Positions 9,672 to 28,426 of a stretch of 38,672 bases of DNA are shown here, one piece after another; positions within the stretch are counted from its first letter, which is position 1, and each line of letters opens with the position of its first letter. Source of the stretch: Methanomicrobiales archaeon (lineage in GTDB: Archaea; Halobacteriota; Methanomicrobia; Methanomicrobiales; Methanospirillaceae); contig JBAXJR010000023.1 of NCBI GenBank assembly GCA_037137755.1, forward strand, positions 1 to 38,672, written 5' to 3'. The notes beneath the pieces are model-generated. The model did no database searches, was not told the origin of the DNA, and saw only the letters and a list, made by a program, of their open reading frames with translations. The translations under genes were made by a program, and so were the position numbers.

Positions 9672-11476
9672 CGGGTTTTGGCGAGAGAAAACGGCAGGCA
9701 TTCCAGCAGTATGAAGAGGGGAACTATGAAGAGTCCTATGCCCTGTGCATAGTCCTCCTGGGCGAGAACCAGGAACCACAGGTTGAGGTACTGGCTGCGA
9801 CGAACCTGTTCAATCTCGGACGGCTCGAAGAGGCAGAACTGCATTTCCGTGACCTTGCACGGAAAATGCCTGATTCATCCCACGTGCACGGGTTCCTCGG
9901 GAAGGTACTCCGTGAAAAAGGCGATGATGGGGCAGTAGCGGAATTCTCCACGGCTGTGCGTCTCGACCCGGATAACCAGGACGCGCTTCGGAATTATATT
10001 AAGTGCCTTGTAGATACCAGGGATTACCGCCGGTCACTTCCTGCACAGCGTCGCCTTGCGACACACTCCCGGAGAGAGGATGACTGCAGGGACCTGATTG
10101 CCACGCTTATTGCCGTGGGTGAGGGTGCCGAGGCACTGGACCAGTACCAGAAGTTTCCGTCCCTGAAAGCAAACGCTGACCCGCTCTTCATCGATGCCCT
10201 CATTGCTGCAGGAGAGTTTGTAAAGGCAGGGGAGGCCGCATCGGCTGAGTTTGAACGCTCCGGTACAAGGGAGTTTCTCCGGAAATATCTTGCAGTACTG
10301 TCACGCTACAACGTAGATCAGGCCCTTTCGGGTTACCGTGACGCCTGCATGATGGGGACGGATCATGGCATTGCAAAGGACTATGTCAACCTCCTCATTT
10401 CTGTCCGGGAGAATGAAGAGGCACTGCGAATGTGCAGGGCGCTGGTAACGGATAACAAGGATCCTGATAGTGAACTACGCCTTATTGAATGCAGGCTGCT
10501 CGCCGGACTTGGTAAGAAAGAGGAGGCAAGATCTACCTACGAAGAGCTGATACGTTCAGGTATCGGAAGTGCCGGGACGGATGCCACCCTTCGTGATGCA
10601 CTCCCGCTCTACCGCGAGTTCCTCCTGACATATTACCCGAAAAACGAGACATTAAAGACATTTACATCGGTCGTCTCACCGGGTGCGAACCCGGTATGCC
10701 TCTACGAGACCGGGAACCTCTACGAACAGCTGGGCGATACTACCGAGGCACGCGGATGGTTCTACCGGGCATACCGAAGCGATTTCCTTACCGGCGGCCT
10801 TGAATATGCATCGTTCCTTGCCCGCCACAAGGAGTGGAGGGAATGTGAGAAAGTGATGCTGTACATCCTTTCCAACATTAAGCGGAGCCAGGACATTGTC
10901 AGGGTTGCACAGGTAACCACGGGAGGCAACATGATTCACCATACCCCGAGGCTCCTCTTCAGGCTTATCGAACGGCTTGAAGAACGACGGGACAAGCTCC
11001 CTGCAGAAGGACTTGAATTTCTGGCCGTTGCGTATCTTGTTGCCGGGACAAACGCGATAAGCGAGGGTAATTATCCGGCATGCAAACGGTACTGCCTGCA
11101 GGGAATTGATATCCTGCCCGCATATTCAACCTGCATTACAACGGCTGATTTCGTTGCTGTCCTCGGACGCTGCAAGGAGCGGGCGATAGTCGACCTGCCG
11201 GTAATGGGTGATGCAGAAGGGTCTGCAGGGATTCCCGCCCGGGAAATGCCACAGGTCCGGATTAGTGGTCTCGAGCCGCAGGAGGAGAAAATCCTCGAGT
11301 TCCTGAAACTGCACCGCAAGGCCAGTGAAACAGACCTGCGAAAACTCCTCGGAACCCGCCGGGTGACAGGGATAATGAACAGGCTGATTGCCAAAAGTGT
11401 TGCACAGGGTGTCAGGCACGTTGCAAAAAGAGGGAGTGGGGAGCAGGGGGAGATCTATGAGTATACGGGAGGGTGA
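9656..11476 (+). CDS. TPR-repeat protein with C-terminal winged-helix-like domain
   Basis: TPR-like helices (LGRLEEAELHF, AVRLDPDNQDAL, LGDTTEARGWFYRAY). Last ~70 aa (QEEKILEFLKLHRKASETDLRKLLGTRRV...EIYEY) read as a wHTH. Overlaps the GT2 stop codon. Confidence 0.8.
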   Translation: MGTGLTGFGERKRQAFQQYEEGNYEESYALCIVLLGENQEPQVEVLAATNLFNLGRLEEAELHFRDLARKMPDSSHVHGFLGKVLREKGDDGAVAEFSTAVRLDPDNQDALRNYIKCLVDTRDYRRSLPAQRRLATHSRREDDCRDLIATLIAVGEGAEALDQYQKFPSLKANADPLFIDALIAAGEFVKAGEAASAEFERSGTREFLRKYLAVLSRYNVDQALSGYRDACMMGTDHGIAKDYVNLLISVRENEEALRMCRALVTDNKDPDSELRLIECRLLAGLGKKEEARSTYEELIRSGIGSAGTDATLRDALPLYREFLLTYYPKNETLKTFTSVVSPGANPVCLYETGNLYEQLGDTTEARGWFYRAYRSDFLTGGLEYASFLARHKEWRECEKVMLYILSNIKRSQDIVRVAQVTTGGNMIHHTPRLLFRLIERLEERRDKLPAEGLEFLAVAYLVAGTNAISEGNYPACKRYCLQGIDILPAYSTCITTADFVAVLGRCKERAIVDLPVMGDAEGSAGIPAREMPQVRISGLEPQEEKILEFLKLHRKASETDLRKLLGTRRVTGIMNRLIAKSVAQGVRHVAKRGSGEQGEIYEYTGG

Positions 11477-11480
11477 TCGG

Positions 11481-12758
11481 ATGGACGAACAGAAACTGGA
11501 GAGCCTGAATATTATCAACGCCTTACGGCGGGGGACCGTGCCTGCCAGCGGGCTGGAGCGGATTGCAGTCGGTCTCGACGTGGAAGAGGACGTTATTGCC
11601 ACACAGCTGGATTATGTCTCTTCGGGGGGGGGCGACCTCAAGTTTATCAGGGGGGATTACGGGAGCGGGAAGACGTTTCTCGTCGCACGGTCACTTGAAA
11701 TTGCACGGGAAAAGGGATTTGCCACGGCCCATGTCATTATTTCCCCTTCATCCCCCCTGCACAAGCTGAAAGGGATTTACCAGCAGATATGCGGGACCCT
11801 GCGGACGAAGGAAGACGAGCACGCACTGAAGACGGTCATCGACAACTGGCTCTATGCTATCGAGGAGCGAATCATCCAGGTCACCGGCGATGGAATGGAT
11901 GAACAGGGACTCGAAGCAGCGACAGAACGGGAGATAGAGTCCGCACTTGCCGGGATCAGCGAGATGAACTCTTCACTTGCAGCAGCCCTGCGGACGTACT
12001 ACCGGGCGAATAATGCCGGGGACTTCCAGCTCGCGCAGTCTGCGATTGGCTGGCTTTCTGCCGAGCCGAATATCGGCCGCGATTTTAAACAGAAAGCAGC
12101 AATTAAAGGTGACATTGACGAGACCGTTGCATTTGTATTTCTGAAAGGTATCGTCCGGGTCATTGTCGGATCGGGAAGCAGGGGCCTGGCGGTCGCAATC
12201 GATGAGGCTGAGATTACGCAGTCTTCCCCGCGTGCGACCCGGGAAAAAGGATATTCCCTCATACGACAGGTGGTTGATTCCCTTGACGGGGGAGAAATGC
12301 CCAACTGTTATTTCCTGGTCACCGGAACGCCCTCGCTGTTTGAAGGCCCACGTGGGTTCCGCTCACTTCCTGCCCTTTTTGACCGGATCAATGTTGTCCC
12401 GACCGATAAATTCAGGAACCCGAGACAGCCGCAGATCATTCTCTCGCGTTTCAATACGAACAAGCTCGAGAAAGTCGCCCTGAAGGTCTGTGACATCTAT
12501 TCAGTTGCCTATAAAGAGGTCGATCGGGAACGGATCTCTCACCGGTTTATCAGGGCAATGATCAGCAAGGTAACCGGAAAATTCGGGGGGAGGGTGGATA
12601 TCATCCCGAGGATTTTCTTAAAGGAATTTGTGGATGTTCTCGACAAGTGCGAGCTCTACGAAGATTACGACCCTTGGGCCGCCTATGAATTTGATACAGC
12701 CCGCTTAAAAGGCGAACTCCGTGAAGAGGAAGAAGCGGTCATGACGATTGAGTTCTGA
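11481..12758 (+). CDS. brxD: BrxD/DUF2791-family P-loop ATPase
   Basis: IINALRRGTVP..GL..IAVG N-terminus, Walker A GDYGSGKT, Walker B LAVAIDEAE, RNPRQPQI, PRIFLKEFVDVLD; ATG 11481 follows GGAGGGTGA, 4 nt after the TPR stop. Confidence 0.85.
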   Translation: MDEQKLESLNIINALRRGTVPASGLERIAVGLDVEEDVIATQLDYVSSGGGDLKFIRGDYGSGKTFLVARSLEIAREKGFATAHVIISPSSPLHKLKGIYQQICGTLRTKEDEHALKTVIDNWLYAIEERIIQVTGDGMDEQGLEAATEREIESALAGISEMNSSLAAALRTYYRANNAGDFQLAQSAIGWLSAEPNIGRDFKQKAAIKGDIDETVAFVFLKGIVRVIVGSGSRGLAVAIDEAEITQSSPRATREKGYSLIRQVVDSLDGGEMPNCYFLVTGTPSLFEGPRGFRSLPALFDRINVVPTDKFRNPRQPQIILSRFNTNKLEKVALKVCDIYSVAYKEVDRERISHRFIRAMISKVTGKFGGRVDIIPRIFLKEFVDVLDKCELYEDYDPWAAYEFDTARLKGELREEEEAVMTIEF

Positions 12759-16733: not shown

Positions 16734-17987
16734 TCACGGCCGTCTCCGGCGGACACGTACCGATTCTGCGTGGGCAAAGAGCCCTTCAGCGTCCGCAATG
16801 GTCTCCACCGTATCCCCGATCAATTCGATCCCTTCCCGGTCGATGATCTGGACGGTCGAGGTCTTCGTGAAATGCCGGACATCGAGACCGGAATAGGTCC
16901 TTGCATATCCTGCAGTCGGGAGGACGTGGTTTGTACCCGATGCAAAGTCCCCGCATGCGACCGCAGCGTTCGGCCCGACAAAGATCGACCCGGCATGCCG
17001 GACCCGTGACAGGACATACATGGTATCACCTGTCTGGATAGACAGGTGTTCAGGGGCGAGGTAATTTACTGCATCGATTGCATCATCCAGGCAGTCAGCA
17101 ATAAAATATCCCGAATTTTCCAGGGCTTTTTCAATTATCGGCCGGCGGGATGCTGATATCATCATGGTCTCAACAATTGCACCGGTCTTTTTCGCAATAG
17201 TTTCATCGGTCGTGATCAGGACACAGGCTGCATGGGGGTCATGCTCGGCCTGTGCAAGGATATCCGCTGCAATAAACTCAGGGTCTGCATTCCCGTCTGC
17301 AATAATCGCGATCTCGCTCGGACCGGCGGGGAAGTCGATCTCGGCATGTTCTCTTAAGAGGACTTTTGCAGCGGTGACGTAGACATTCCCGGGACCGACA
17401 ATCTTCTGGACAGGTTCAATCGTCCCGGTCCCGAGCGCCATCGCGGCAATTGCCTGGGCACCGCCGACCTGGTAGACTTCGTCCACACCGGCGATATCAA
17501 GGGCGATTAAGGTTGCAGGGTGGACTGGCGGCGGGGAGCAGCAGCAGACTGAGGGGACACCGGCGACCCTGGCAGGCACGGTACACATGAGTGCGGTGGA
17601 GGGGTATGCCGCTCTTCCGCCGGGCACGTAAGCCCCGATCCGGTCAAGTGCGGTCGTCTTCACCCCGAGCGTGATACCCGGGGATACCTGCCGGAGCCAC
17701 AGGTCTTCAGGTCGTGACATTTCGTGGAAGGCTGATATCCGTGCCTCTGCTTCTATCAGGCTCTCGACAAGACGGGGTTCGACTTTTTCGTATGCCGCTT
17801 CGCGCTCCTCCTCGCTCACCAGGAGTTCTGAAAGCCGGATGTGATCGAACTTCTCCGTCAGGTCGAAAAGGGCCGCATCCCCGCCTTCCCTGACCATGCG
17901 GATAATCTCTTCAACAGGTCCTTTTACATCGGAAATCCCGGATCTCCGCGCCTCCACCCATTTTTCGATATCGACAGCCTGCCACAT
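16734..17987 (-). CDS. hisD: Histidinol dehydrogenase, copy 1
   Basis: [53 protein letters not shown]; start ATG 17987 chosen by homology to copy 2. Confidence 0.93.
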
Positions 17988-18373
17988 GTTAGCAGTCGTT
18001 CGATGAGATCCAATGTTAAAGTATCGACGAGGTCCGTTGATCAGCCCGGCCATTATCGCAACCAGTCGGGGGAGGATTTTTTCTGGCTCTCCCTGAACTA
18101 TCCCGTATCCCTTCTGGTGAACAATTTTGACCTGCACCTGTCATGTGAGGCGGACCAGGGCGGGATGATACACCCGCCTTTCTCTGAAATTTTGGATTCA
18201 GGTTTGTATTTCTCGCATGAATGTATCTCGCAAAAACCTGCTAAAACAGCTGGATGCTCCAAAATACAACTGCCACCAACAACGAAATGGTTCCGTGTGA
18301 AGAGTTTTTCACATCCAAATGGCGCTGCCGTCCCGAAACCTTAACAACCATTTCTGATGAAGCTATTCCTACC

Positions 18374-19624
18374 ATGTGGAAGGAAGTCGAGGTCGATACC
18401 TGGATCAATAACCGGACATCCAGTCTTGAGGGCGTCCGTGAAAATGTTACGGAGATAATCGCGCGTGTCCGGAATGAAGGGGACACGGCACTGAAAGCGA
18501 TGTCCCGGCACGTCGTCCTCGAAGAAGTCGCTGTTTCGGAGAAGGAAATTAAGGCAGCATACGACACGGTCGACGGGAAAATTGTTGAGAGCCTCGTCAA
18601 GGCAGAGGAACGCATCCGGCGCTTCCACGAACTCCAGCGCCCCCGTGACCTCTGGCTTGACACGATTGAACCCGGGATTGTCCTCGGCGTAAAAACAACA
18701 CCATTACGCAGGGTCGGCATTTACGTGCCTGGCGGAAGGGCTGCGTACCCGTCAACAGCCCTCATGTGTGCGGTTCCGGCCCGTGTGGCAGGGGTCCGCG
18801 AGATCTGCGCCTGTTCACCCCCACCCATAAAACCGCTCACGCTTATCGCCCTTGATATCGCCGGTGTCACCGAGATTTACAACGCCGGTGGCGCCCAGGC
18901 AATTGCTGCCATGGCAATTGGCACGGAAACCGTAAAACCCGTCCAGAAAATTGTCGGGCCTGGAAACGTGTACGTGACAATGGCAAAAATGATGCTCCGG
19001 GACCACGTGGAGATCGACTTCCCTGCCGGCCCGAGCGAGATCGCCATCATTGCCGATCATACAGCAGACCCTGATTTCATTGCAGCCGATATCCTCGCCC
19101 AGGCAGAACATGACCCGGATGCGGCCTGTATCCTGATTACCACCGATGAGAGCCTTGCAGAACAAGTCGGGAAGATTGTCGCTGCAATGACCGAAAAAGC
19201 ACCAAGGAAGGAGATCATCGAAAAAGCACTCGTTAATTCAGGGTACGTTGTTGTCCGTGACATCGATGAAGCGATTCGTGTATCAGACCGGGTTGCACCC
19301 GAGCACCTCTCAATACAAACCGCCGACTCACTTTCCATTGTAACCCGCGTGGAAAATGCAGGTGCAATATTTGTCGGGAAATATTCGGTAGTCGCAAGCG
19401 GGGATTATGCGATCGGGACTAACCATGTCCTCCCGACTGCAGGGTACGCAAAACTCTATTCCGGCCTTGATGTGAACCATTTCTGCAAGACAGCCTCTGT
19501 CGAGATGGTAAGTCCGGAAGGACTCGAAGCAATCGGTGATATCGTCGAAACCATCGCTGAAGCAGAAGGCCTTTTTGCCCATTCGGAATCCGTGAAAGTC
19601 AGGCGCAGGAAACATACCGTTTAA
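18374..19624 (+). CDS. hisD: Histidinol dehydrogenase, copy 2
   Basis: Same motif set ([39 protein letters not shown]); start ATG 18374. Confidence 0.92.
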   Translation: MWKEVEVDTWINNRTSSLEGVRENVTEIIARVRNEGDTALKAMSRHVVLEEVAVSEKEIKAAYDTVDGKIVESLVKAEERIRRFHELQRPRDLWLDTIEPGIVLGVKTTPLRRVGIYVPGGRAAYPSTALMCAVPARVAGVREICACSPPPIKPLTLIALDIAGVTEIYNAGGAQAIAAMAIGTETVKPVQKIVGPGNVYVTMAKMMLRDHVEIDFPAGPSEIAIIADHTADPDFIAADILAQAEHDPDAACILITTDESLAEQVGKIVAAMTEKAPRKEIIEKALVNSGYVVVRDIDEAIRVSDRVAPEHLSIQTADSLSIVTRVENAGAIFVGKYSVVASGDYAIGTNHVLPTAGYAKLYSGLDVNHFCKTASVEMVSPEGLEAIGDIVETIAEAEGLFAHSESVKVRRRKHTV

Positions 19625-21577: not shown

Positions 21578-21937
21578 CTATCTTGCTAAATCAGAAAGAA
21601 GTCTCCTCAGACCCGGTTCTACCTCCGGGTCTAATTTGTAAATTTTATGTTTTGAACGATAATAAGAATCGATAAGCCCACCATCTTTCAGGACTTTCAG
21701 ATTATATGAGATGAGATTCTGGGGTTCTTCAAACACATGATAAAATTCACAGACACAATGGTCACGTTTCAGGAGAAGGATAATGATATTGAGTCGAAGC
21801 GGATGACTGAGCTTCTTCATCATTCGGTTGAAAACCATGACTTTTTCTATGGATAACGCCTCTTTCTCCCTACGTAGTTCCTCCTCCCAATCGCTCCGGA
21901 GTGCACAGTCTGCAGGACAGCAGCGGGCAGATGCCAT
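21578..21937 (-). CDS. arsR: ArsR/SmtB family transcriptional repressor
   Basis: LSHPLRLNII...HCVCEF (alpha3 CVC site), ISYNLKVLKDGGLI; extra N-terminal CC-x3-C. Confidence 0.88.
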   Translation of the reverse strand: MASARCCPADCALRSDWEEELRREKEALSIEKVMVFNRMMKKLSHPLRLNIIILLLKRDHCVCEFYHVFEEPQNLISYNLKVLKDGGLIDSYYRSKHKIYKLDPEVEPGLRRLLSDLAR

Positions 21938-22056
21938 GTTAAAAAAAAGGGTTTTTGCGGAAAATAATACGTTCGGAACAATCGAAACATGATATTTTAA
22001 AAAATGTGACGAGTTTGCGGGATATTTTTAAAATAACGATAAGCCAATAATCAGTC

Positions 22057-22488
22057 ATGTCACAGAAAACATACGGCATAATTGCGTTAATCGTGCTCAT
22101 AGCGGCTTTTCTTGTTGGTCTGTATGGCATCCTCCAGTATTCAGTCACTGCAGCAGCCATCTATCTTATCGGAAGTATCGTTGTATTCCTGATCTTCGTC
22201 TATGCATTCTGTGCAAAATGCCCAATCCGTAACAACTGTACCCACGTGGTCATGGGTTGTGCGACACATCTCATGCCCAGCCGTGCAACCGGAGCGTATT
22301 CCCGCCCTGATCTGCTCGGTACATTATTGTTCTTTGGCTTTGTCGCACTCTTCCCCCAGTATTGGCTGATCCGAAATTCATTGTTGATGCTGGTATTCTG
22401 GATATTATTTTTGGGAAACCTGGGGATTACTCATTACACGTGCTGCAAGGGGTGCGGGAACATATACTGTCAGTTGCGGTATGAATGA
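22057..22488 (+). CDS. 4-TM membrane protein with two Cys clusters, unknown function
   Basis: TM-TM-FCAKCP-x4-CTH...TM-TM-CCKGCGNIYC; divergent from arsR. Confidence 0.75.
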   Translation: MSQKTYGIIALIVLIAAFLVGLYGILQYSVTAAAIYLIGSIVVFLIFVYAFCAKCPIRNNCTHVVMGCATHLMPSRATGAYSRPDLLGTLLFFGFVALFPQYWLIRNSLLMLVFWILFLGNLGITHYTCCKGCGNIYCQLRYE

Positions 22489-22537
22489 CCGTGGGGATGT
22501 CCTGGTTGGGAAGCAGATTTAATTTTTTTTTTGATTT

Positions 22538-22553
22538 TTCAATTTTTTTTGAA
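22538..22553. promoter_or_regulatory. Putative ArsR operator TTCAA-N6-TTGAA
   Basis: Inverted repeat upstream of DGC gene 1; the same motif recurs at 23666-23681. Confidence 0.55.
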
Positions 22554-22619
22554 ATCCAGTTCCACGATATATATGGGTTCCTGTTCCACGGATCACATAT
22601 CAAACGGATGTGAAAAACG

Positions 22620-23162
22620 ATGGGATTCGAAACAATTAAGATCGAGAAGGTAACGGGAAAATGCCCGGCATGTGAAGATTATTCAGAAATAAACTCCACA
22701 GCCCCACCGAAAATTGCAGTCATGGCCTGCGAAGGGGCATGTTCCCGGGGAGAGGTTGCAAGAAGGGCCGCAAATCTGGTTGCGCACAGGCTCGCACGGG
22801 ATGAAACCGTCCGTATTTGTCTGGGGGGAGCGTTTACCAAGGATACCGGGCAGCGGAATCTCGTGAGGAGAGCAGATAAGGTCATCGCAATCGAAGGGTG
22901 TTTCATCAATTGTTCCTCACGGATGATGGCCGGGGTTCTTCCGGATGTGCACCCGGTCCTCGTGCGTGCAGATCTTATTCATGAGGTTGACCTCCCGTTT
23001 GGGATCGATGAGGTACCAGATGAGATGTTTACTGTTTATGCATACAAGGTTGCTGAACAGGTTGTAAAGGATCATGTCAAAGGGTCCGGCTGTTGTGATA
23101 ATTCAGGACAGGAATCTGGTTGTTCAGCCGGTTTATGTGCTCCGGTTTCTGAACAGAAATAA
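22620..23162 (+). CDS. DGC-domain putative zinc-binding protein
   Basis: CPAC, ACEGACSRGE, RICLG, IAIEGCFINC; Cys-rich tail. Confidence 0.82.
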   Translation: MGFETIKIEKVTGKCPACEDYSEINSTAPPKIAVMACEGACSRGEVARRAANLVAHRLARDETVRICLGGAFTKDTGQRNLVRRADKVIAIEGCFINCSSRMMAGVLPDVHPVLVRADLIHEVDLPFGIDEVPDEMFTVYAYKVAEQVVKDHVKGSGCCDNSGQESGCSAGLCAPVSEQK

Positions 23163-23188: not shown

Positions 23189-23617
23189 CTATTTCTTTTT
23201 CTTCCGGGGTTCCTTGCAACATGTGAGTATAGGTTCAGGTACCACCGTACCAGAATCCTGCGGAACAATGCGGTATTTCTTTCCCTTTTCAGTAAGACGG
23301 TATATGATCCAGCTCCCCTGCTGTTCTCCAACGATCAAGTCTGCCTTTTTGAGTGCGCTCAGATGGTACGATAACTTGGAATCAGAAATTCCAATAATTT
23401 CCCTGATCACGCAGACACAGAGGGGTTGCGAGGTGAGAAGGTGAAGGATCTTCATTCTGATCATGTCAGAAAGGGCATGGTGGACCTCGACAAGATTCTC
23501 TAGTTCCTGGTCATCAGGAAGCCGCGAAATCAATCCTTTCAATCCACCGCTCCTGTCCAGTTCATCCTGGATGGCTGGCGGAATCGGTAATGGCTCTTTC
23601 ACCACAGGTCCTGTCAT
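23189..23617 (-). CDS. arsR: ArsR/SmtB family transcriptional repressor
   Basis: ALSDMIRMKIL...LCVCVI, SKLSYHLSALKKADLI, WIIYRLT; C-terminal CC. Confidence 0.9.
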   Translation of the reverse strand: MTGPVVKEPLPIPPAIQDELDRSGGLKGLISRLPDDQELENLVEVHHALSDMIRMKILHLLTSQPLCVCVIREIIGISDSKLSYHLSALKKADLIVGEQQGSWIIYRLTEKGKKYRIVPQDSGTVVPEPILTCCKEPRKKKK

Positions 23618-23665
23618 TTCAAAAATATATGAAATGACAAAGTATATTACTCTTCACACCAAGAC

Positions 23666-23681
23666 TTCAATAAAAGTTGAA
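23666..23681. promoter_or_regulatory. Putative ArsR operator TTCAA-N6-TTGAA
   Basis: AGACTTCAA-TAAAAG-TTGAAATCT in the divergent promoter between arsR and the DGC-arsP-acr3-arsC operon. Confidence 0.6.
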
Positions 23682-23694
23682 ATCTGTGATTAGT

Positions 23695-24084
23695 ATGAGC
23701 CAGCAAAATTCATGTGGTAATTGTGGATCGGAAGGAAAAACAACCATAATTTATTCCTGTTCCGGCCTCGGATCGAACGTGGGACAATTATCAAACGCTG
23801 CGGCCTGTCGCCTGACAAATGAAGGATTCGGGAACGGTTCCTGTCTTGCGGGTGTCGGTGGATCTGTTGAAAAGCTCATCGGAATTGGATCAGCAGCAAA
23901 CCGGCGGATTGTCATCGATGGCTGTCCTCTTGCCTGTGGAAAGAAAATCCTGAATGAGAAGGGACTTGCCATTGATGACTACGTGATCATCACCGATCTC
24001 GGCATTGAAAAAGTCCCGGGTCCCGGTTTCAATGAACAGGACCTGGAAACGGTCATTTGTGCAGTGAAACACCAGGATTTGTAG
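23695..24084 (+). CDS. DGC-domain putative zinc-binding protein
   Basis: YSCSG..NVGQ, SCLAG, VIDGCPLACGKK; ATG 23695. Confidence 0.88.
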   Translation: MSQQNSCGNCGSEGKTTIIYSCSGLGSNVGQLSNAAACRLTNEGFGNGSCLAGVGGSVEKLIGIGSAANRRIVIDGCPLACGKKILNEKGLAIDDYVIITDLGIEKVPGPGFNEQDLETVICAVKHQDL

Positions 24085-24143
24085 AAAGGCATGATGGGCA
24101 TTACATGAGAAGTCCCAATATTCTATAGGGAAGGTGCAATTCC

Positions 24144-25106
24144 ATGATCCCGGATTATCTGCAGATGTTTGCCGACTGGCTAACCTACACCGTATTGGGT
24201 ATGACAGCAGGAAGTCCGCTTGCATCGTCGGTTAATTTCTTTATCTACGACTCGATCAAGGTCACGGCACTCCTTGCGATCATCGTATTTTTTGTAGGGA
24301 TTATCAGGACTTTCATCACCCCGCTGAAGGTGAAAAAATGGGTTGGAGGAAGGACGGAAGGAGTTGGTAATGTCCTTGCTGCATTGCTCGGGATTCCGAC
24401 TCCATTCTGTTCCTGCTCAGCGGTCCCACTGTTTATCGGGTTCGTGGAATCCGGTGTACCACTAGGGATTACCTTCTCGTTCCTGATTGCCTCACCCTTG
24501 ATCAACGAGATAGCCGTTGCAATGTTGTTCGCATTATTCGGCTGGCAGATTGCGGCGCTTTACATCGTATCCGGGCTGATCATTGCGATCGTTGCAGGAA
24601 TCATTATCGGCCGGCTCCACCTGGAAAACCAAGTCGAGGAATTTGTCTACAAATGCAAAATGTATGACAACCCCGATAAACCGATGACCTGGCGGGACCG
24701 GTTTGACTTTGCCGTTGGTGAATCAAAGAGTATCACCCTCAAAGTCCTGCCTTACATCCTCATCGGTATCGCCATTGGTGCGATAATTCACGGATATGCC
24801 CCGGCGGATTTCCTTGTAAACATCGCGGGACCCGATAATCCTCTGGCGGTCCCGATTGCGGTGCTGATAGGAATCCCCCTCTACTCTAATGCAGCCGGGA
24901 TGCTCCCGATCATGCAGGTACTGACCTCGAAAGGTATGGCCATGGGTACTGCCCTTGCTTTCATGATGGCGGTGGTAGGGCTCTCCCTGCCGGAAATGAT
25001 CATTCTCCGGCGGGTAATCAAAATAAAATTGATCGCAATATTTGTTGGAATCCTGTTTGTGGCCATTACCCTGACAGGGTTACTCTTCAACGCGGTACTC
25101 GGATAA
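24144..25106 (+). CDS. arsP: ArsP/DUF318-family permease
   Basis: TPFCSCSAVPLF, FLIASPLINE, GIPLYSN, LSLPE motifs; ars context. Confidence 0.88.
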   Translation: MIPDYLQMFADWLTYTVLGMTAGSPLASSVNFFIYDSIKVTALLAIIVFFVGIIRTFITPLKVKKWVGGRTEGVGNVLAALLGIPTPFCSCSAVPLFIGFVESGVPLGITFSFLIASPLINEIAVAMLFALFGWQIAALYIVSGLIIAIVAGIIIGRLHLENQVEEFVYKCKMYDNPDKPMTWRDRFDFAVGESKSITLKVLPYILIGIAIGAIIHGYAPADFLVNIAGPDNPLAVPIAVLIGIPLYSNAAGMLPIMQVLTSKGMAMGTALAFMMAVVGLSLPEMIILRRVIKIKLIAIFVGILFVAITLTGLLFNAVLG

Positions 25107-25128
25107 ACAACGAAAAGGGAGATGAAAA

Positions 25129-25578
25129 ATGACAAAATCTGATGATGCACTCAACGCGTTCCAGAGCGGGTTTACCTGCTCTGCGGCTGTGTTCTCGGCA
25201 TTCTCCGAAGATCTTGGGCTTGACAGCGAAATGGCAAAGAAGATCGCCTGTGGGTTTGGTGCAGGCATTTCAAAGACAGGTAACATCTGTGGTGCCGTAT
25301 CAGGGGCGGTCATGGTGATCGGCCTGAAATATGGGAAAACCGTGAAGGGAGACGATGCTGCGACCGAGAAGACGCGGGCTATGGTCAGGGAATTTATTCA
25401 TGAATTTACCACAAAGAACGGATCGGTCAATTGCACGGAACTACTTGGGCTCAACCTCGCGATCCCGGAAGAGTATGCAAAGGCCCGCGACAACAGATCC
25501 TTCTTCACATTATGCCCGGCACTTGTAGGCGATGCCGCCACAATCCTTGAAGAATTACTTGAAAACGCAGAACGGTGA
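25129..25578 (+). CDS. C_GCAxxG_C_C family putative redox protein
   Basis: FTCSAAV, GFGAG, ICGAVSG, VNCTELLG, C-terminal Cys. Confidence 0.88.
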   Translation: MTKSDDALNAFQSGFTCSAAVFSAFSEDLGLDSEMAKKIACGFGAGISKTGNICGAVSGAVMVIGLKYGKTVKGDDAATEKTRAMVREFIHEFTTKNGSVNCTELLGLNLAIPEEYAKARDNRSFFTLCPALVGDAATILEELLENAER

Positions 25579-25584
25579 ACCCAC

Positions 25585-26664
25585 ATGAATACCCCGGTTA
25601 AACGACTCTCCCTTCTTGATACCTACCTAACCCTCTGGATTTTCCTGGCAATGGCAGTAGGTATTGCAATCGGGTATTTTATACCAGTAGTACCTGCGGC
25701 AATTACAAGCCTGTCGGTTGGAACGACTTCTATTCCTATTGCGATCGGACTTATCCTGATGATGTATCCACCGCTGGCAAAGGTCCGGTACGAGGATTTG
25801 CGTTATGTTTTCCGGGATACGAAAGTGCTCGGCTTATCACTCGTGCAGAACTGGATTGTCGGACCAGTACTGATGTTTGCCCTGGCGGTCCTGTTCCTCC
25901 GTGACCAGCCACTCCTGATGTACGGGGTTATCCTCGTAGGTATTGCCCGGTGTATTGCGATGGTCATTGTATGGAATGACCTTGCCGGAGGTGACTGCGA
26001 GTATTGTGCGGCAATTGTGGGTCTCAATTCCATATTCCAGGTATTTTTCTATTCCCTCTATGCCTGGATTTTTATCACCATACTCCCCGCAGCACTTGGG
26101 ATTGCAGAAGGGGCGGTTGTAAATGTCACCATATCAGAGATCGCGATAAGTGTGTTTATTTATCTGGGGATTCCGTTTATCGCAGGTGTAATCACCCGTT
26201 TCGCCCTGTTGAGAATAAAATCAAGGGAATGGTATGACAATTATTTCATTCCAAAGATCTCCCCGATAACACTCATTGCCCTGCTCTTCACCATCATCGT
26301 GATGTTCTCGCTCAAAGGGGAGTATATCATCACGGTACCGCTTGATGTAGTCAGGGTCGCAATTCCATTGGTCATCTATTTCCTGCTGATGTTCTTCATC
26401 AGTTTCTGGATGGCGTTTAAGATGAAGGTGAATTATAAGAAGTCTACCAGTCTTTCATTCACAGCTGCATCCAACAACTTTGAACTGGCGATCGCCGTTG
26501 CAATCGGGGTATTCGGGATCGGGTCAATGGTGGCATTCGCTACCGTTATTGGCCCGCTCATTGAAGTCCCGGTAATGATCGGACTTGTCAATGTAGCATT
26601 ATGGCTGAAGACCTGGTGGTATGGGGGAGACAAATCCCTGATGTGCGAGGAGGGATGTTCATGA
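25585..26664 (+). CDS. acr3: Acr3 arsenite efflux transporter
   Basis: [23 protein letters not shown] (conserved Cys), [18 protein letters not shown]. Confidence 0.96.
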
Positions 26665-27092
26665 CCGGAAAGAAACGTTTCCTGTTTATTTGCACCCACA
26701 ACTCCGCCCGATCTCAGATGGCCGAGGGATACCTGAGAGCACGCTACGGAGACAGGTTCGAAGCATTTAGTGGCGGGACAGAAGTAACGAGGGTTCATCC
26801 GGTGGCAATTGCCGTTATGAATGAGATTGGAATCGATATTTCCTCACACCGGTCTAAGATGATCGATGAGTTTTACCACACCCCGATTGACATTGTTGTC
26901 ACGGTATGTGATTCTGCAAAGGGATTTTGCCCGTTTTTCCCCGGGAAACATGAGGAGATCCATTTCAGCTTCCCCGATCCATCAGGACTTACCGGGACTG
27001 ATGAAGAGGTCCTTGCCGGGTTTCGTATGATACGGGATGAAATTATATCGTGGATAGACAGGACCTTTGGAGAAGTGGACAATCGAACGTAA
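26661..27092 (+). CDS. arsC: Arsenate reductase, thioredoxin-coupled LMW-PTP type
   Basis: [13 protein letters not shown]-loop, resolving cysteines VCD-x5-CP, FPDP; ATGA overlap with the acr3 stop. Confidence 0.93.
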
Positions 27093-27112
27093 ATTTGTGT
27101 AACGAGGAAAAG

Positions 27113-27790
27113 ATGCTGAAGGTAAAACCACATCCCCAATACCCTCCGGAAGAGGGGAGATATCTCCGTGGAAATGATTTCTCACCGGTAGCTGTAGTGA
27201 TTATCCTTAATACTGATGCCGATAAAATCCCACCTGAAATTGAACGTCTTGTGCGGGTTGGCGTAGATACAGGTGCTGCGATATCCGGGACTGTACAAAC
27301 AGCAAATATCGGAATTGAGAAGATTATCTGTAACATTGTTTCGAATACAAATATCCGGTACCTGGTTCTCGGAGGCCCTGAATCTGCGGGACATCGGACG
27401 GGAGAAGCAATCAAGGCATTGTTTTCCAATGGTGTAGATGAAAAGAAACGGATTATCGGGACCGGGGCTTTGAGCCCGACGCTCTACAATGTCCCCATTG
27501 AATTCATTGACCGGTTACGGAAACAAGTTACCCTGGTCGACTGCCAGTTTAACAATGAAGAAGTTCTCAGGCAGGCGACACAAGCCTGTTACCAGGAAGC
27601 CCCGGTTCCGTTTGGAGTGTATTCACTCTATGATCCCGGTGCATATCCGGAGCCACCGTTAAGTGGAAAACTTACGTGGACTGTGACAAAGCCCTGGGCT
27701 GAGCCGGAAGACGAGAAGGAACGTCTTACAAAGCAGAAAATGCTTGATTTGATTGCCAGGATGAAGCAAAAGCAAGACAATAAACGATAA
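27113..27790 (+). CDS. Soluble MtrA/MtxA-like corrinoid-binding protein
   Basis: YPPEEGRYLRGN..SPVAV, GAAISGTVQTANIGIEKIICNIVSNTNIRYLVLGGPESAGH.TG, RIIG. Matches the MtrA core including the cobalt-ligand His position. No C-terminal TM anchor; no other mtr genes nearby. Confidence 0.85.
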   Translation: MLKVKPHPQYPPEEGRYLRGNDFSPVAVVIILNTDADKIPPEIERLVRVGVDTGAAISGTVQTANIGIEKIICNIVSNTNIRYLVLGGPESAGHRTGEAIKALFSNGVDEKKRIIGTGALSPTLYNVPIEFIDRLRKQVTLVDCQFNNEEVLRQATQACYQEAPVPFGVYSLYDPGAYPEPPLSGKLTWTVTKPWAEPEDEKERLTKQKMLDLIARMKQKQDNKR

Positions 27791-27824: not shown

Positions 27825-27968
27825 TTAGCAGCACCCGTGTCCGCACTTGAACTCTTCACAAATCTTCTTGCAGTCCTCGGAACAGTCGATGTGGACTCCC
27901 TTGTCATCTTTCGTCGCTTTGCATACAACTTTTCCGTCGACTTCGACTTTCATTTCATTCCATTTCAT
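27825..27968 (-). CDS. 47-aa Cys-rich small protein (metallothionein-like tail)
   Basis: ATG 27968 preceded by GGAG: MKWNEMKVEVDGKVVCKATKDDKGVHIDCSEDCKKICEEFKCGHGCC (7 Cys, 2 His). It is the 3' part of track ORF 27825..28244. Confidence 0.7.
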   Translation of the reverse strand: MKWNEMKVEVDGKVVCKATKDDKGVHIDCSEDCKKICEEFKCGHGCC

Positions 27969-28108: not shown

Positions 28109-28426
28109 ATGTGCCACTGCTGCGATATGAGAGGATTTTTGTCATATCTTGTACTCTGGATGCTGAAACATCACAAGATGAATGGCGCACAGATCGCAAA
28201 AGAGCTTGAGAAACGAAGGGGGTCAAAACCATCCCCGGGGACAATTTATCCGGTATTAAAAGAACTCAAAGAAGACGGGCTCATTGATTCCGATGACAAC
28301 AAGGAGTATTCCTTAACGAACAAAGGAGAGGAAGAGCTCAGGAATGCATGTACCGTGTTCTGCAAACAGTTTCATGATTTTCATAAAATGTTAGAATGTT
28401 GTAGAGAGGATTCTTCCAACGAGTGA
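28109..28426 (+). CDS. PadR-family transcriptional regulator with Cys-rich ends
   Basis: RGFLSYLVL, NGAQIAKEL, PSPGTIYPVLKEL, YSLTNKG; MCHCC start, CxxxC and CC near the C-terminus. Confidence 0.88.
   Translation: MCHCCDMRGFLSYLVLWMLKHHKMNGAQIAKELEKRRGSKPSPGTIYPVLKELKEDGLIDSDDNKEYSLTNKGEEELRNACTVFCKQFHDFHKMLECCREDSSNE

Follow-up and report, generated by a model that had tools for sequence, protein, structure and literature searches.

MtrA is the corrinoid subunit of the Na+-translocating methyl-tetrahydromethanopterin:coenzyme M methyltransferase (MtrA-H). Here we analyse an MtrA-like protein encoded by the last gene of an arsenic (ars) operon in a 38,672-nt stretch of DNA, referred to below as the window, from the Methanomicrobiales archaeon GCA_037137755.1 (contig JBAXJR010000023.1, forward strand; positions refer to the window unless another locus is named). 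The protein shares with MtrA of the MtrA-H complex (structures 5L8X, 8Q3V and 9QTQ) its family, PF04208, a Rossmann-like fold, the position of the His-on ligand and the cobalamin contacts. Its gene is very probably a genuine, conserved and previously unlisted ars-operon gene.

Several features separate the protein from canonical MtrA. It is 35-37% identical, lies on a long separate branch and scores 110.6 bits against TIGR01111, the equivalog model for true MtrA, which is below the cut-off of 249.15. It lacks the mtrEDCBAFGH gene context and the C-terminal membrane helix, but adds a helix at residues 41-52 and a soluble, conserved 60-residue tail (D174 and G176 are invariant). An earlier note on this DNA, which we call the original prediction, had described the protein as free of a membrane anchor, and this is borne out: the maximal 19-residue Kyte-Doolittle mean is 1.05, against 2.39-2.87 at the C-terminus of two canonical MtrA proteins, and a transmembrane helix is absent from 54 of 54 ars-clade proteins (maximum 1.56). 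Proteins of this kind are found in bacteria and in non-methanogenic archaea, in ars operons, which canonical MtrA is not. Its low equivalog score, missing membrane anchor and different gene context together rule it out as a subunit of the Mtr complex. The subfamily model NF002126 (PRK00964.1-4) is passed by the window protein (179.1 bits, cut-off 161), but was discarded as a clade marker because canonical tandem MtrA also scores over its cut-off.

The best structural match is to the cytoplasmic MtrA homologues, represented by the M. fervidus protein (5LAA), which is soluble and holds cobalamin base-off/His-on (PMC4915002; here and below, a cited paper stands for the part of its text that was covered). 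These homologues have 170-180 residues and are 60-97% identical to MtrA (PMC4915002), whereas the window protein has 225 residues and is 37% identical to its M. fervidus match. Its length, its 35-37% identity to MtrA and its separate long branch rule out a near-identical cytoplasmic MtrA copy. The covered text of PMC4915002 gives distant MtrA homologues no function or context and does not mention arsenic.

In a confident AlphaFold2 model, built from a 53-sequence alignment (pLDDT 86.1), the protein adopts the Rossmann-like MtrA fold. The best Foldseek match is 5laa_B, the M. fervidus homologue in complex with cobalamin (E 4.9e-17, target-normalised TM score 0.92, 37% identity), and M. jannaschii MtrA is also among the best structural matches; a phmmer comparison of the sequence with 5LAA gives E 3.7e-30. 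The cobalamin site of MtrA consists of the ligand His84, contacts from Thr53, Asn55, Gly57 and Asn64, and Tyr18 and Val61 around the base (PMC4915002). In a HMMER alignment these residues correspond, in the same order, to H94, T63, N65, G67, N74, Y17 and I71 of the window protein, all of which are invariant or at least 90% conserved across 53 aligned family members. The His that the original prediction placed at the cobalt-ligand position is indeed there, as PESAGHRTG aligns with the EVQGH ligand His of solved MtrA. Because the His ligand, the contact residues and the fold are all conserved, the protein probably binds a cobamide. The cysteines C73 and C159 are nearly invariant, each occurring in 60 of 61 aligned proteins. 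Solved MtrA and two canonical MtrA proteins have an Ala at the position of C73; C159 has no counterpart in the two canonical proteins and aligns with a Cys of solved MtrA.

A pattern scan across 185,579 species, each represented by a single genome, yielded 66 loci. Neighbours were called by tblastn with the window Ars proteins and by clustering the open reading frames (ORFs) within 5 kb, cluster representatives being annotated with Pfam and NCBIfam. Most loci come from metagenome-assembled genomes (MAGs); the phylum names used here are MAG labels, and some contigs may be mis-binned. Counted by tblastn alone, the MtrA-like gene has Acr3, ArsC or ArsP within 5 kb in 47 of 57 clade loci, a set to which we added four loci whose MtrA-like ORF was lost in the ORF filter or cut by a contig end. 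Each of the ten unlinked loci is flanked, on one side or both, by less than 5 kb of sequence. When clustering or tblastn was accepted, 44 of the 53 clade proteins other than that of the window had Acr3, ArsC or ArsP within 5 kb, and 47 did so with ArsR included. The linkage is local: the density of Acr3, ArsC and ArsP matches per 10 kb is 3.19 within 2.5 kb and 0.47, 0.17 and 0.00 in the next 2.5-kb bins (57 loci). It is also widespread, the linked loci falling under ten phylum labels (Methanobacteriota, Spirochaetota, Planctomycetota, Verrucomicrobiota, Lentisphaerota, Aerophobota, Nitrososphaerota, Bathyarchaeota, Chloroflexota and Thermodesulfobacteriota/delta-proteobacterial). Gene order varies by lineage, with ArsR-ArsP-MtrA-like in Planctomycetota, ArsP-MtrA-like-ArsR in Nitrososphaeria, ArsG-like-MtrA-like-Acr3-ArsM in Chloroflexota and Acr3-(ArsC)-MtrA-like in Methanomicrobiales. 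Thus, the linkage does not reflect one element copied around.

We extended the analysis to 251 genomes of the window's own order, picked regardless of gene context and searched with the window protein as query. The MtrA-like gene was found in 22 of them, distributed by family as 16 of 70, 4 of 20 and 1 of 39, with 0 of 121 across three other families. With the window's own copy excluded, 21 of 22 copies adjoin Acr3, ArsC or ArsP, and the exception sits on a 2.7-kb contig. The Acr3-ArsC-MtrA-like arrangement is also found in complete genomes from the window's own family. In the one canonical tandem mtrA locus inspected (L081, 13 kb, 35% identity), no ars-gene homologue was found. A lack of enrichment of homologues near ars genes had been named in advance as an observation that would count against the original prediction; the 57 loci, the order sample and the decay with distance all show enrichment, and the prediction was not refuted on this point.

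A maximum-likelihood tree of 65 rows (quick search, with Shimodaira-Hasegawa-like approximate likelihood ratio test (SH-aLRT) support only) places all ars-linked proteins in one 55-row clade with a support of 98, and canonical MtrA is set apart by a long branch with a support of 100. Outside the ars clade are eight loci with tandem or long (411-437 residues) MtrA-like forms and without ars genes. As part of the best explanation, we propose that the ars-linked clade is distinct and has spread horizontally across anaerobic archaea and bacteria.

The sister-clade loci without ars context (L059, L060, L062, L064, L065, L046, L068 and L072) include long MtrA-like proteins of 411-437 residues that are followed by a short second MtrA-like ORF, and have genes for MFS, glutaredoxin, DUF4346, DsrE-like, pyridine-nucleotide-disulfide oxidoreductase and ferredoxin proteins as neighbours. 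A TusA domain is present in the related database proteins P0127, P0131, P0142 and P0154, and in P0184-P0190, which are 36-47% identical to the window protein, an MtrA domain is fused to a thymidylate-synthase domain (PF00303). Some Methanomicrobiales loci (L012, L015) have a DUF166 gene directly upstream of the MtrA-like gene. A plasmid search returned four weak matches, distant DUF4346 proteins of Planococcus and one Paraburkholderia record. The Planococcus kocurii plasmid NZ_CP013660.2 (L097 464-1840) encodes a 458-residue DUF4346 protein that is 41.5% identical to residues 9-143 of the window protein, and no ars genes were found near the DUF4346 gene on this single plasmid locus.

Three natural fusions join the MtrA-like protein to an LMWP-type ArsC. 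In P0005 and P0007, which are 82-84% identical to the window protein, ArsC is N-terminal and the MtrA-like part follows; in P0122 (54% identity) the MtrA-like part comes first and ArsC last. The opposite domain orders therefore indicate independent fusion events. At L066 (9136-10008), the ArsC ORF upstream of the MtrA-like gene has, as called here, 290 residues, about 150 more than other ArsC proteins, and overlaps the MtrA-like start. Among the 53 related loci, the commonest immediate upstream neighbour is an ArsP-family permease (12), followed by Acr3 (10) and ArsC (6), and Acr3 lies immediately downstream in 7. ArsR is found within 5 kb in 33 of the 53 and DGC genes recur in 13. ArsG-like DsbD_2 permeases are present in 15 loci (NF040495 247 bits on the representative) and ArsF-like proteins in 7; thioredoxin, redoxin, FTR-beta and C_GCAxxG_C_C proteins also recur near the MtrA-like gene.

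Two described arsenic- or metal-methylating proteins invite comparison. ArsM, like the MtrA-like protein, is encoded by an ars-operon gene, and the two would give the same products if the MtrA-like protein methylates arsenic. In ArsM, a methyl-donor site is paired with a cascade of cysteines by which the pentavalent intermediate is reduced, and ArsC and the MtrA-like protein, as a pair or a fusion, would bring together both of these parts. However, ArsM has an S-adenosylmethionine (SAM)-binding methyltransferase fold, the MtrA-like protein contains no such domain, and the two genes share loci rather than one being replaced by the other. HgcA, the closest parallel in concept, is a corrinoid protein that methylates a soft metal(loid), and in this it resembles the role considered here. 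It uses Cys-on ligation and differs in its unrelated fold, which is corrinoid iron-sulfur protein-like with a transmembrane domain, and in its dedicated ferredoxin HgcB. The HgcA (NF040863) and CdhD models gave no match on the window MtrA-like protein. Genes for HgcA are often flanked by acr3, arsC and arsM (PMC7438021). In P. mercurii, hgcA is ArsR-controlled and arsenic-responsive, and a DGC gene belongs to an arsenic-induced ArsR-ArsP operon (bioRxiv 10.1101/2022.10.17.512643). The MtrA-like gene shares its locus with hgcA in three cases, L017 (7386-8465), L022 and L033; the L017 gene was scanned (NF040863 449.9 bits) and the other two were assigned by clustering. In these loci hgcA adjoins a 286-residue ORF without a family match, and the same ORF recurs beside ArsG-like genes.

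Anaerobic demethylation of arsenic is currently hypothesised to proceed by corrinoid-mediated methyl transfer (PMC10579292; bioRxiv 10.64898/2026.08.27.747368). The MtaC/MtaB/MtaA-type systems proposed for dimethylarsenate demethylation differ from the MtrA-like protein in having the PF02310 B12-binding fold and dedicated MT1 and MT2 methyltransferases, and in lying outside ars operons. A 2026 paddy-soil preprint lists candidate demethylation genes without an MtrA-like gene, and 'mtr' has 0 occurrences in its covered text (bioRxiv 10.64898/2026.08.27.747368). Other MtrA-like and MtrAH proteins of non-methanogens, those of Asgard archaea, are discussed in a 2024 paper in which 'arsen' has 0 occurrences. 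Our search of openly accessible articles, combining MtrA or corrinoid with ars terms, found no paper linking an MtrA-like gene to arsenic.

We tentatively favour a reading in which the MtrA-like protein is a soluble His-on cobamide protein, dedicated to ars operons, that exchanges a methyl group between cobalt and arsenic together with ArsC; we regard this as plausible but as falling somewhat short of probable. In the proposed mechanism, CH3-Co(III) on the MtrA-like protein would methylate thiol-bound As(III), ArsC-type cysteines would reduce the pentavalent methylated product through a thiol cascade, and methylarsenite would leave through ArsP. Since As(III) would be oxidised on methylation, the product would be pentavalent and need reduction, which a thiol-cascade reductase could provide. 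Run in reverse, Co(I) would take the methyl group from pentavalent methylarsenicals without oxygen, and Acr3 would export As(III). The protein would thus cooperate with the thiol-cascade reductase ArsC and with the exporters ArsP and Acr3, and cooperation with ArsC is suggested by the existence of ArsC fusions.

We prefer methylation of As(III) followed by ArsP export, a direction that is itself doubtful, because the chemistry has precedent, the ArsP and MtrA-like cassette of Nitrososphaeria would be self-sufficient and ArsC would supply the reduction. Demethylation of pentavalent methylarsenicals by Co(I) comes second and seems distinctly unlikely, although the pairing with Acr3 would agree with it, as would the need for a defence against methylated arsenic that works without oxygen. 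Methylcobalamin, arsenite and glutathione yield MMA without enzymatic catalysis (PMC2801198), arsenic methylation by methanogens is reported to proceed through side reactions that depend on methylcobalamin (review PMC13262295), and MtrA-type His-on corrinoid proteins are established methyl carriers (PMC4915002). Cobamide use by the carriers is indicated by the 6-17 B12-binding-domain proteins encoded in each of five non-methanogen carrier genomes (5 of 5). It is rather doubtful that ArsC and the MtrA-like protein, separate or fused, make up a cobamide-dependent functional analogue of ArsM, whether methylating or run in reverse.

A number of observations weigh against methyl exchange. Neither a methyltransferase able to charge or discharge the corrinoid nor a reductive activase is conserved across the related loci or found in the window. 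Many neighbours of the MtrA-like gene, such as thioredoxin, redoxin and ArsG-like DsbD_2 genes, are thiol or sulfur redox genes and not one-carbon (C1) genes, and the sister clade likewise lies amid sulfur-redox genes (glutaredoxin, DsrE-like, TusA fusions), not C1 genes. Glu54 of MtrA, which forms a hydrogen bond to the His ligand, corresponds to Ala64 in the window protein (codon 27302-27304); this position is Glu in the family consensus and Ala in the window protein and its close relatives P0005-P0007, a substitution that could alter the redox or ligation behaviour of the cobalt. The family-specific Cys73 appears to lie on the helix that lines the nucleotide-tail pocket, which is not obviously the methyl face. 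CobS was found in just 2 of 5 bacterial and archaeal carrier genomes.

The distribution of ArsM points the same way. The cluster of methyltransferases encoded near MtrA-like genes consists mostly of true ArsM: four of the six members scanned pass the ArsM cut-off NF008823 (L053, L037, L050 and L069), and the three ArsM cysteines are kept in 9-10 of 12 aligned rows. Of the other two, that of L012 scores 224 bits against 263, its ORF call probably being truncated, and that of L017 reaches 53.6 bits and is no ArsM match. True ArsM is therefore encoded in the same locus as the MtrA-like gene in other lineages. Among the order-sample genomes, 7 of the 22 with the MtrA-like gene and 52 of the 229 without it have ArsM; these are raw counts from genomes that are kin and not independent, and the idea that the MtrA-like gene replaces or requires ArsM is not supported by these numbers. 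The original prediction had noted that the window contains no SAM-dependent ArsM and had proposed SAM-independent methylation as one possibility; the idea that the protein stands in for a missing ArsM loses force, since other lineages encode true ArsM alongside it. What stands of that earlier interpretation is a real, conserved ars-operon member that has kept its cobamide site.

The same linkage and cysteines could also arise if the protein were an arsenic carrier or metallochaperone, with C73 and C159 binding As(III) or methylarsenite and the cobamide site structural or vestigial. The arsenical would be taken from ArsC or ArsM and handed to Acr3 or ArsP, as ArsD serves ArsA; ArsD is a functional analogy only and has no sequence relation to the MtrA-like protein with its two invariant cysteines. 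Such a carrier would need no methyltransferase partner. The near-universal presence of both cysteines (60 of 61), with C73 in place of the canonical Ala, speaks for it, as do the exporters that are the commonest immediate neighbours (12 loci with ArsP and 10 with Acr3 upstream, 7 with Acr3 downstream), the fusion to ArsC in both orders, which fits channelling, and the sharing of loci with ArsM and ArsP, which fits a hand-over of methylarsenite. However, the His ligand and all side-chain cobalamin contacts are invariant or nearly so across at least ten phylum labels, which a vestigial site would not predict, and C73 and C159 are also invariant in the sister clade without ars context. We consider a carrier of this kind unlikely. 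A redox helper, in which Co(I)/Co(II), the Cys pair or both pass electrons and either take over the regeneration of ArsC from thioredoxin or directly reduce pentavalent arsenicals, would account for the fusions with a thiol-cascade reductase, for the recurrent thioredoxin, redoxin, ArsG-like DsbD_2, FTR-beta and C_GCAxxG_C_C neighbours, and for the sister clade with its TusA fusions and its glutaredoxin, DsrE-like and pyridine-nucleotide-disulfide oxidoreductase neighbours. It is quite improbable, since the protein has no Fe-S or flavin domain to feed electrons to the cobalt, known MtrA-type His-on corrinoid proteins are methyl carriers and not reductases (PMC4915002), and several of these loci have thioredoxin genes already.

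Two further explanations find less room. Protection of the cobamide pool under arsenic stress, the alternative offered by the original prediction, would work by sequestering, repairing or dealkylating damaged or mis-methylated cobamide and is very unlikely and without specific support. It agrees with the conserved cobamide site, the lack of a conserved catalytic partner and the use of cobamides by the carriers, but explains neither the ArsC fusions nor the tight ArsP pairing. Arsenicals are known to target thiols, the literature searched gave no report of arsenic damage to cobamide, and the gene is patchy among cobamide-dependent methanogens (22 of 251 genomes). That an MtrA paralogue came to the operon end by chance, as a passenger without an arsenic role, is hardly credible: the gene is terminal in the window operon and the downstream genes differ among relatives, but linkage holds in 47 of 57 loci under ten phylum labels and in varied gene orders, 21 of 22 order-sample copies are ars-linked and ArsC fusions arose independently.

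The genes of the window operon and of a possible extension of the island are collected in Table 1. Recomputed from the coordinates, the gaps between the co-directional genes from DGC to the MtrA-like gene are 59, 22, 6, -4 and 20 nt, exactly as the original prediction gave them. The -4 nt gap is an ATGA overlap of the Acr3 stop and ArsC start codons. GAGGAA is present at 27104-27109, upstream of the MtrA-like ATG, and a T5 run follows the MtrA-like stop codon. The 20-nt gap and the upstream ATGA overlap are compatible with co-transcription of arsC and the MtrA-like gene, as far as the sequence goes. ArsC contains the CX5R loop, and its C11 and C90 are invariant in 13 aligned neighbour ArsC proteins. 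The earlier claims that the window holds neither mtrB-H neighbours nor a SAM-dependent ArsM agree with profile scans of the proteins of the whole 38.7-kb window, which found no corrinoid methyltransferase, activase, Mtr subunit or ArsM. The second DGC protein has homologues of 74-85% identity beside the ars loci of relatives.

Table 1. Features of the ars operon and its possible extension in the window
Feature	Position	Strand	Profile match or remark
ArsR/SmtB-family regulator	23189-23617	minus, divergent from operon	PF01022 (HTH_5) 46 bits; NF033788 74.5 bits (cut-off 55)
Divergent ArsR/DGC intergenic region, 77 nt	23618-23694		A+T-rich, TATA-like stretches; presumed promoter/operator
DGC-domain protein, Cys-rich	23695-24084	plus	PF08859 103.5 bits
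ArsP-family permease, FCSCS motif	24144-25106	plus	PF03773 248.5 bits
C_GCAxxG_C_C putative redox protein	25129-25578	plus	PF09719 118.2 bits; TIGR01909 94.9 bits
Acr3 arsenite efflux permease	25585-26664	plus	TIGR00832 442.6 bits (cut-off 282.8)
ArsC, LMWP (thioredoxin-coupled) type	26661-27092	plus	PF01451 64.7 bits; TIGR02691 127 bits, below cut-off 174
MtrA-like soluble cobamide-type protein, 225 residues, last operon gene	27113-27790	plus	PF04208 117.9 bits (cut-off 25; profile positions 2-137 of 173)
Possible island extension (second ArsR-like, membrane protein, second DGC)	21578-23162		Putative; membership suggested by recurrence only
Second ArsR-like regulator	21578-21937	minus	HTH_5 26.7 bits
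143-residue membrane protein	22057-22488	plus	Part of the possible island extension
Second DGC protein	22620-23162	plus	DGC 59.8 bits

The host is a methanogen of the Methanomicrobiales, as shown by its McrA and by the Methanomicrobiales or Methanoregulaceae names of the closest relatives. In the host assembly, which is 90.6% complete and whose absences are to be read with that figure, no ArsM over the cut-off was found (best match 55 bits against 263). The window MtrA-like gene is the only PF04208 match in the assembly, and canonical mtrA and mtrH (PF02007) were not found in it although McrA is present on another contig; most simply, the missing mtrA and mtrH are an assembly gap. Contig C39 of the same genome carries a second, decayed ars island (L098 2803-5933). 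Its ArsR and DGC are 81% and 82% identical to those of the window, its ArsP is split into two ORFs by a frameshift, and its MtrA-like remnant consists of only the last ~55 (C-terminal) codons with an internal stop and a frameshift, followed by a class I SAM-methyltransferase that is not ArsM.

Elsewhere in the window, a 47-residue Cys-rich ORF ending in CGHGCC (27825-27968, minus strand) is convergent to the operon end, and a PadR-family regulator (28109-28426, plus) is divergent from it. Two full-length histidinol dehydrogenase paralogues are divergent neighbours at 16737-18137 (minus) and 18254-19621 (plus), with PF00815 scores of 514 and 526 bits. A BrxC/BrxD-type ATPase (11388-12755, plus; PF10923 411 bits) adjoins a TPR protein, possibly as a fragment of a defence system.

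No cobamide protein figures among the accepted ars genes listed in recent surveys and in the covered text of the 2026 preprint (bioRxiv 10.64898/2026.08.27.747368). Under anoxic conditions, in paddy soils, sediments and groundwater, gaps remain for the enzymes of methylarsenical demethylation and for oxygen-independent methylarsenite detoxification. ArsI is oxygen-dependent and ArsH canonically so, its anaerobic role being called unclear (bioRxiv 10.64898/2026.08.27.747368). Demethylation and methylarsenite detoxification control the speciation of arsenic in rice. If ArsC and the MtrA-like protein do make up a cobamide-dependent analogue of ArsM, they would be the missing enzyme of the methylcobalamin-dependent arsenic methylation that methanogens have reportedly been known for since the 1970s, McBride and Wolfe being said to have described it in 1971, and could also be the enzyme of anaerobic arsenic demethylation in paddy soils. 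It would then also seem likely that the MtrA-like protein and HgcA, as corrinoid proteins in ars loci, share an arsenic-related native role, and the MtrA-like gene in any case adds a corrinoid-arsenic link beside the unexplained association of hgcAB with ars genes. A small soluble protein with a visible cofactor and a defined partner, ArsC, is testable at the bench. The conserved ars linkage points to a possible B12-dependent step in arsenic handling, and, should the chemistry be confirmed, an MtrA-fold corrinoid protein recruited to arsenic operons could turn out to be an arsenic-transforming system of a new kind.

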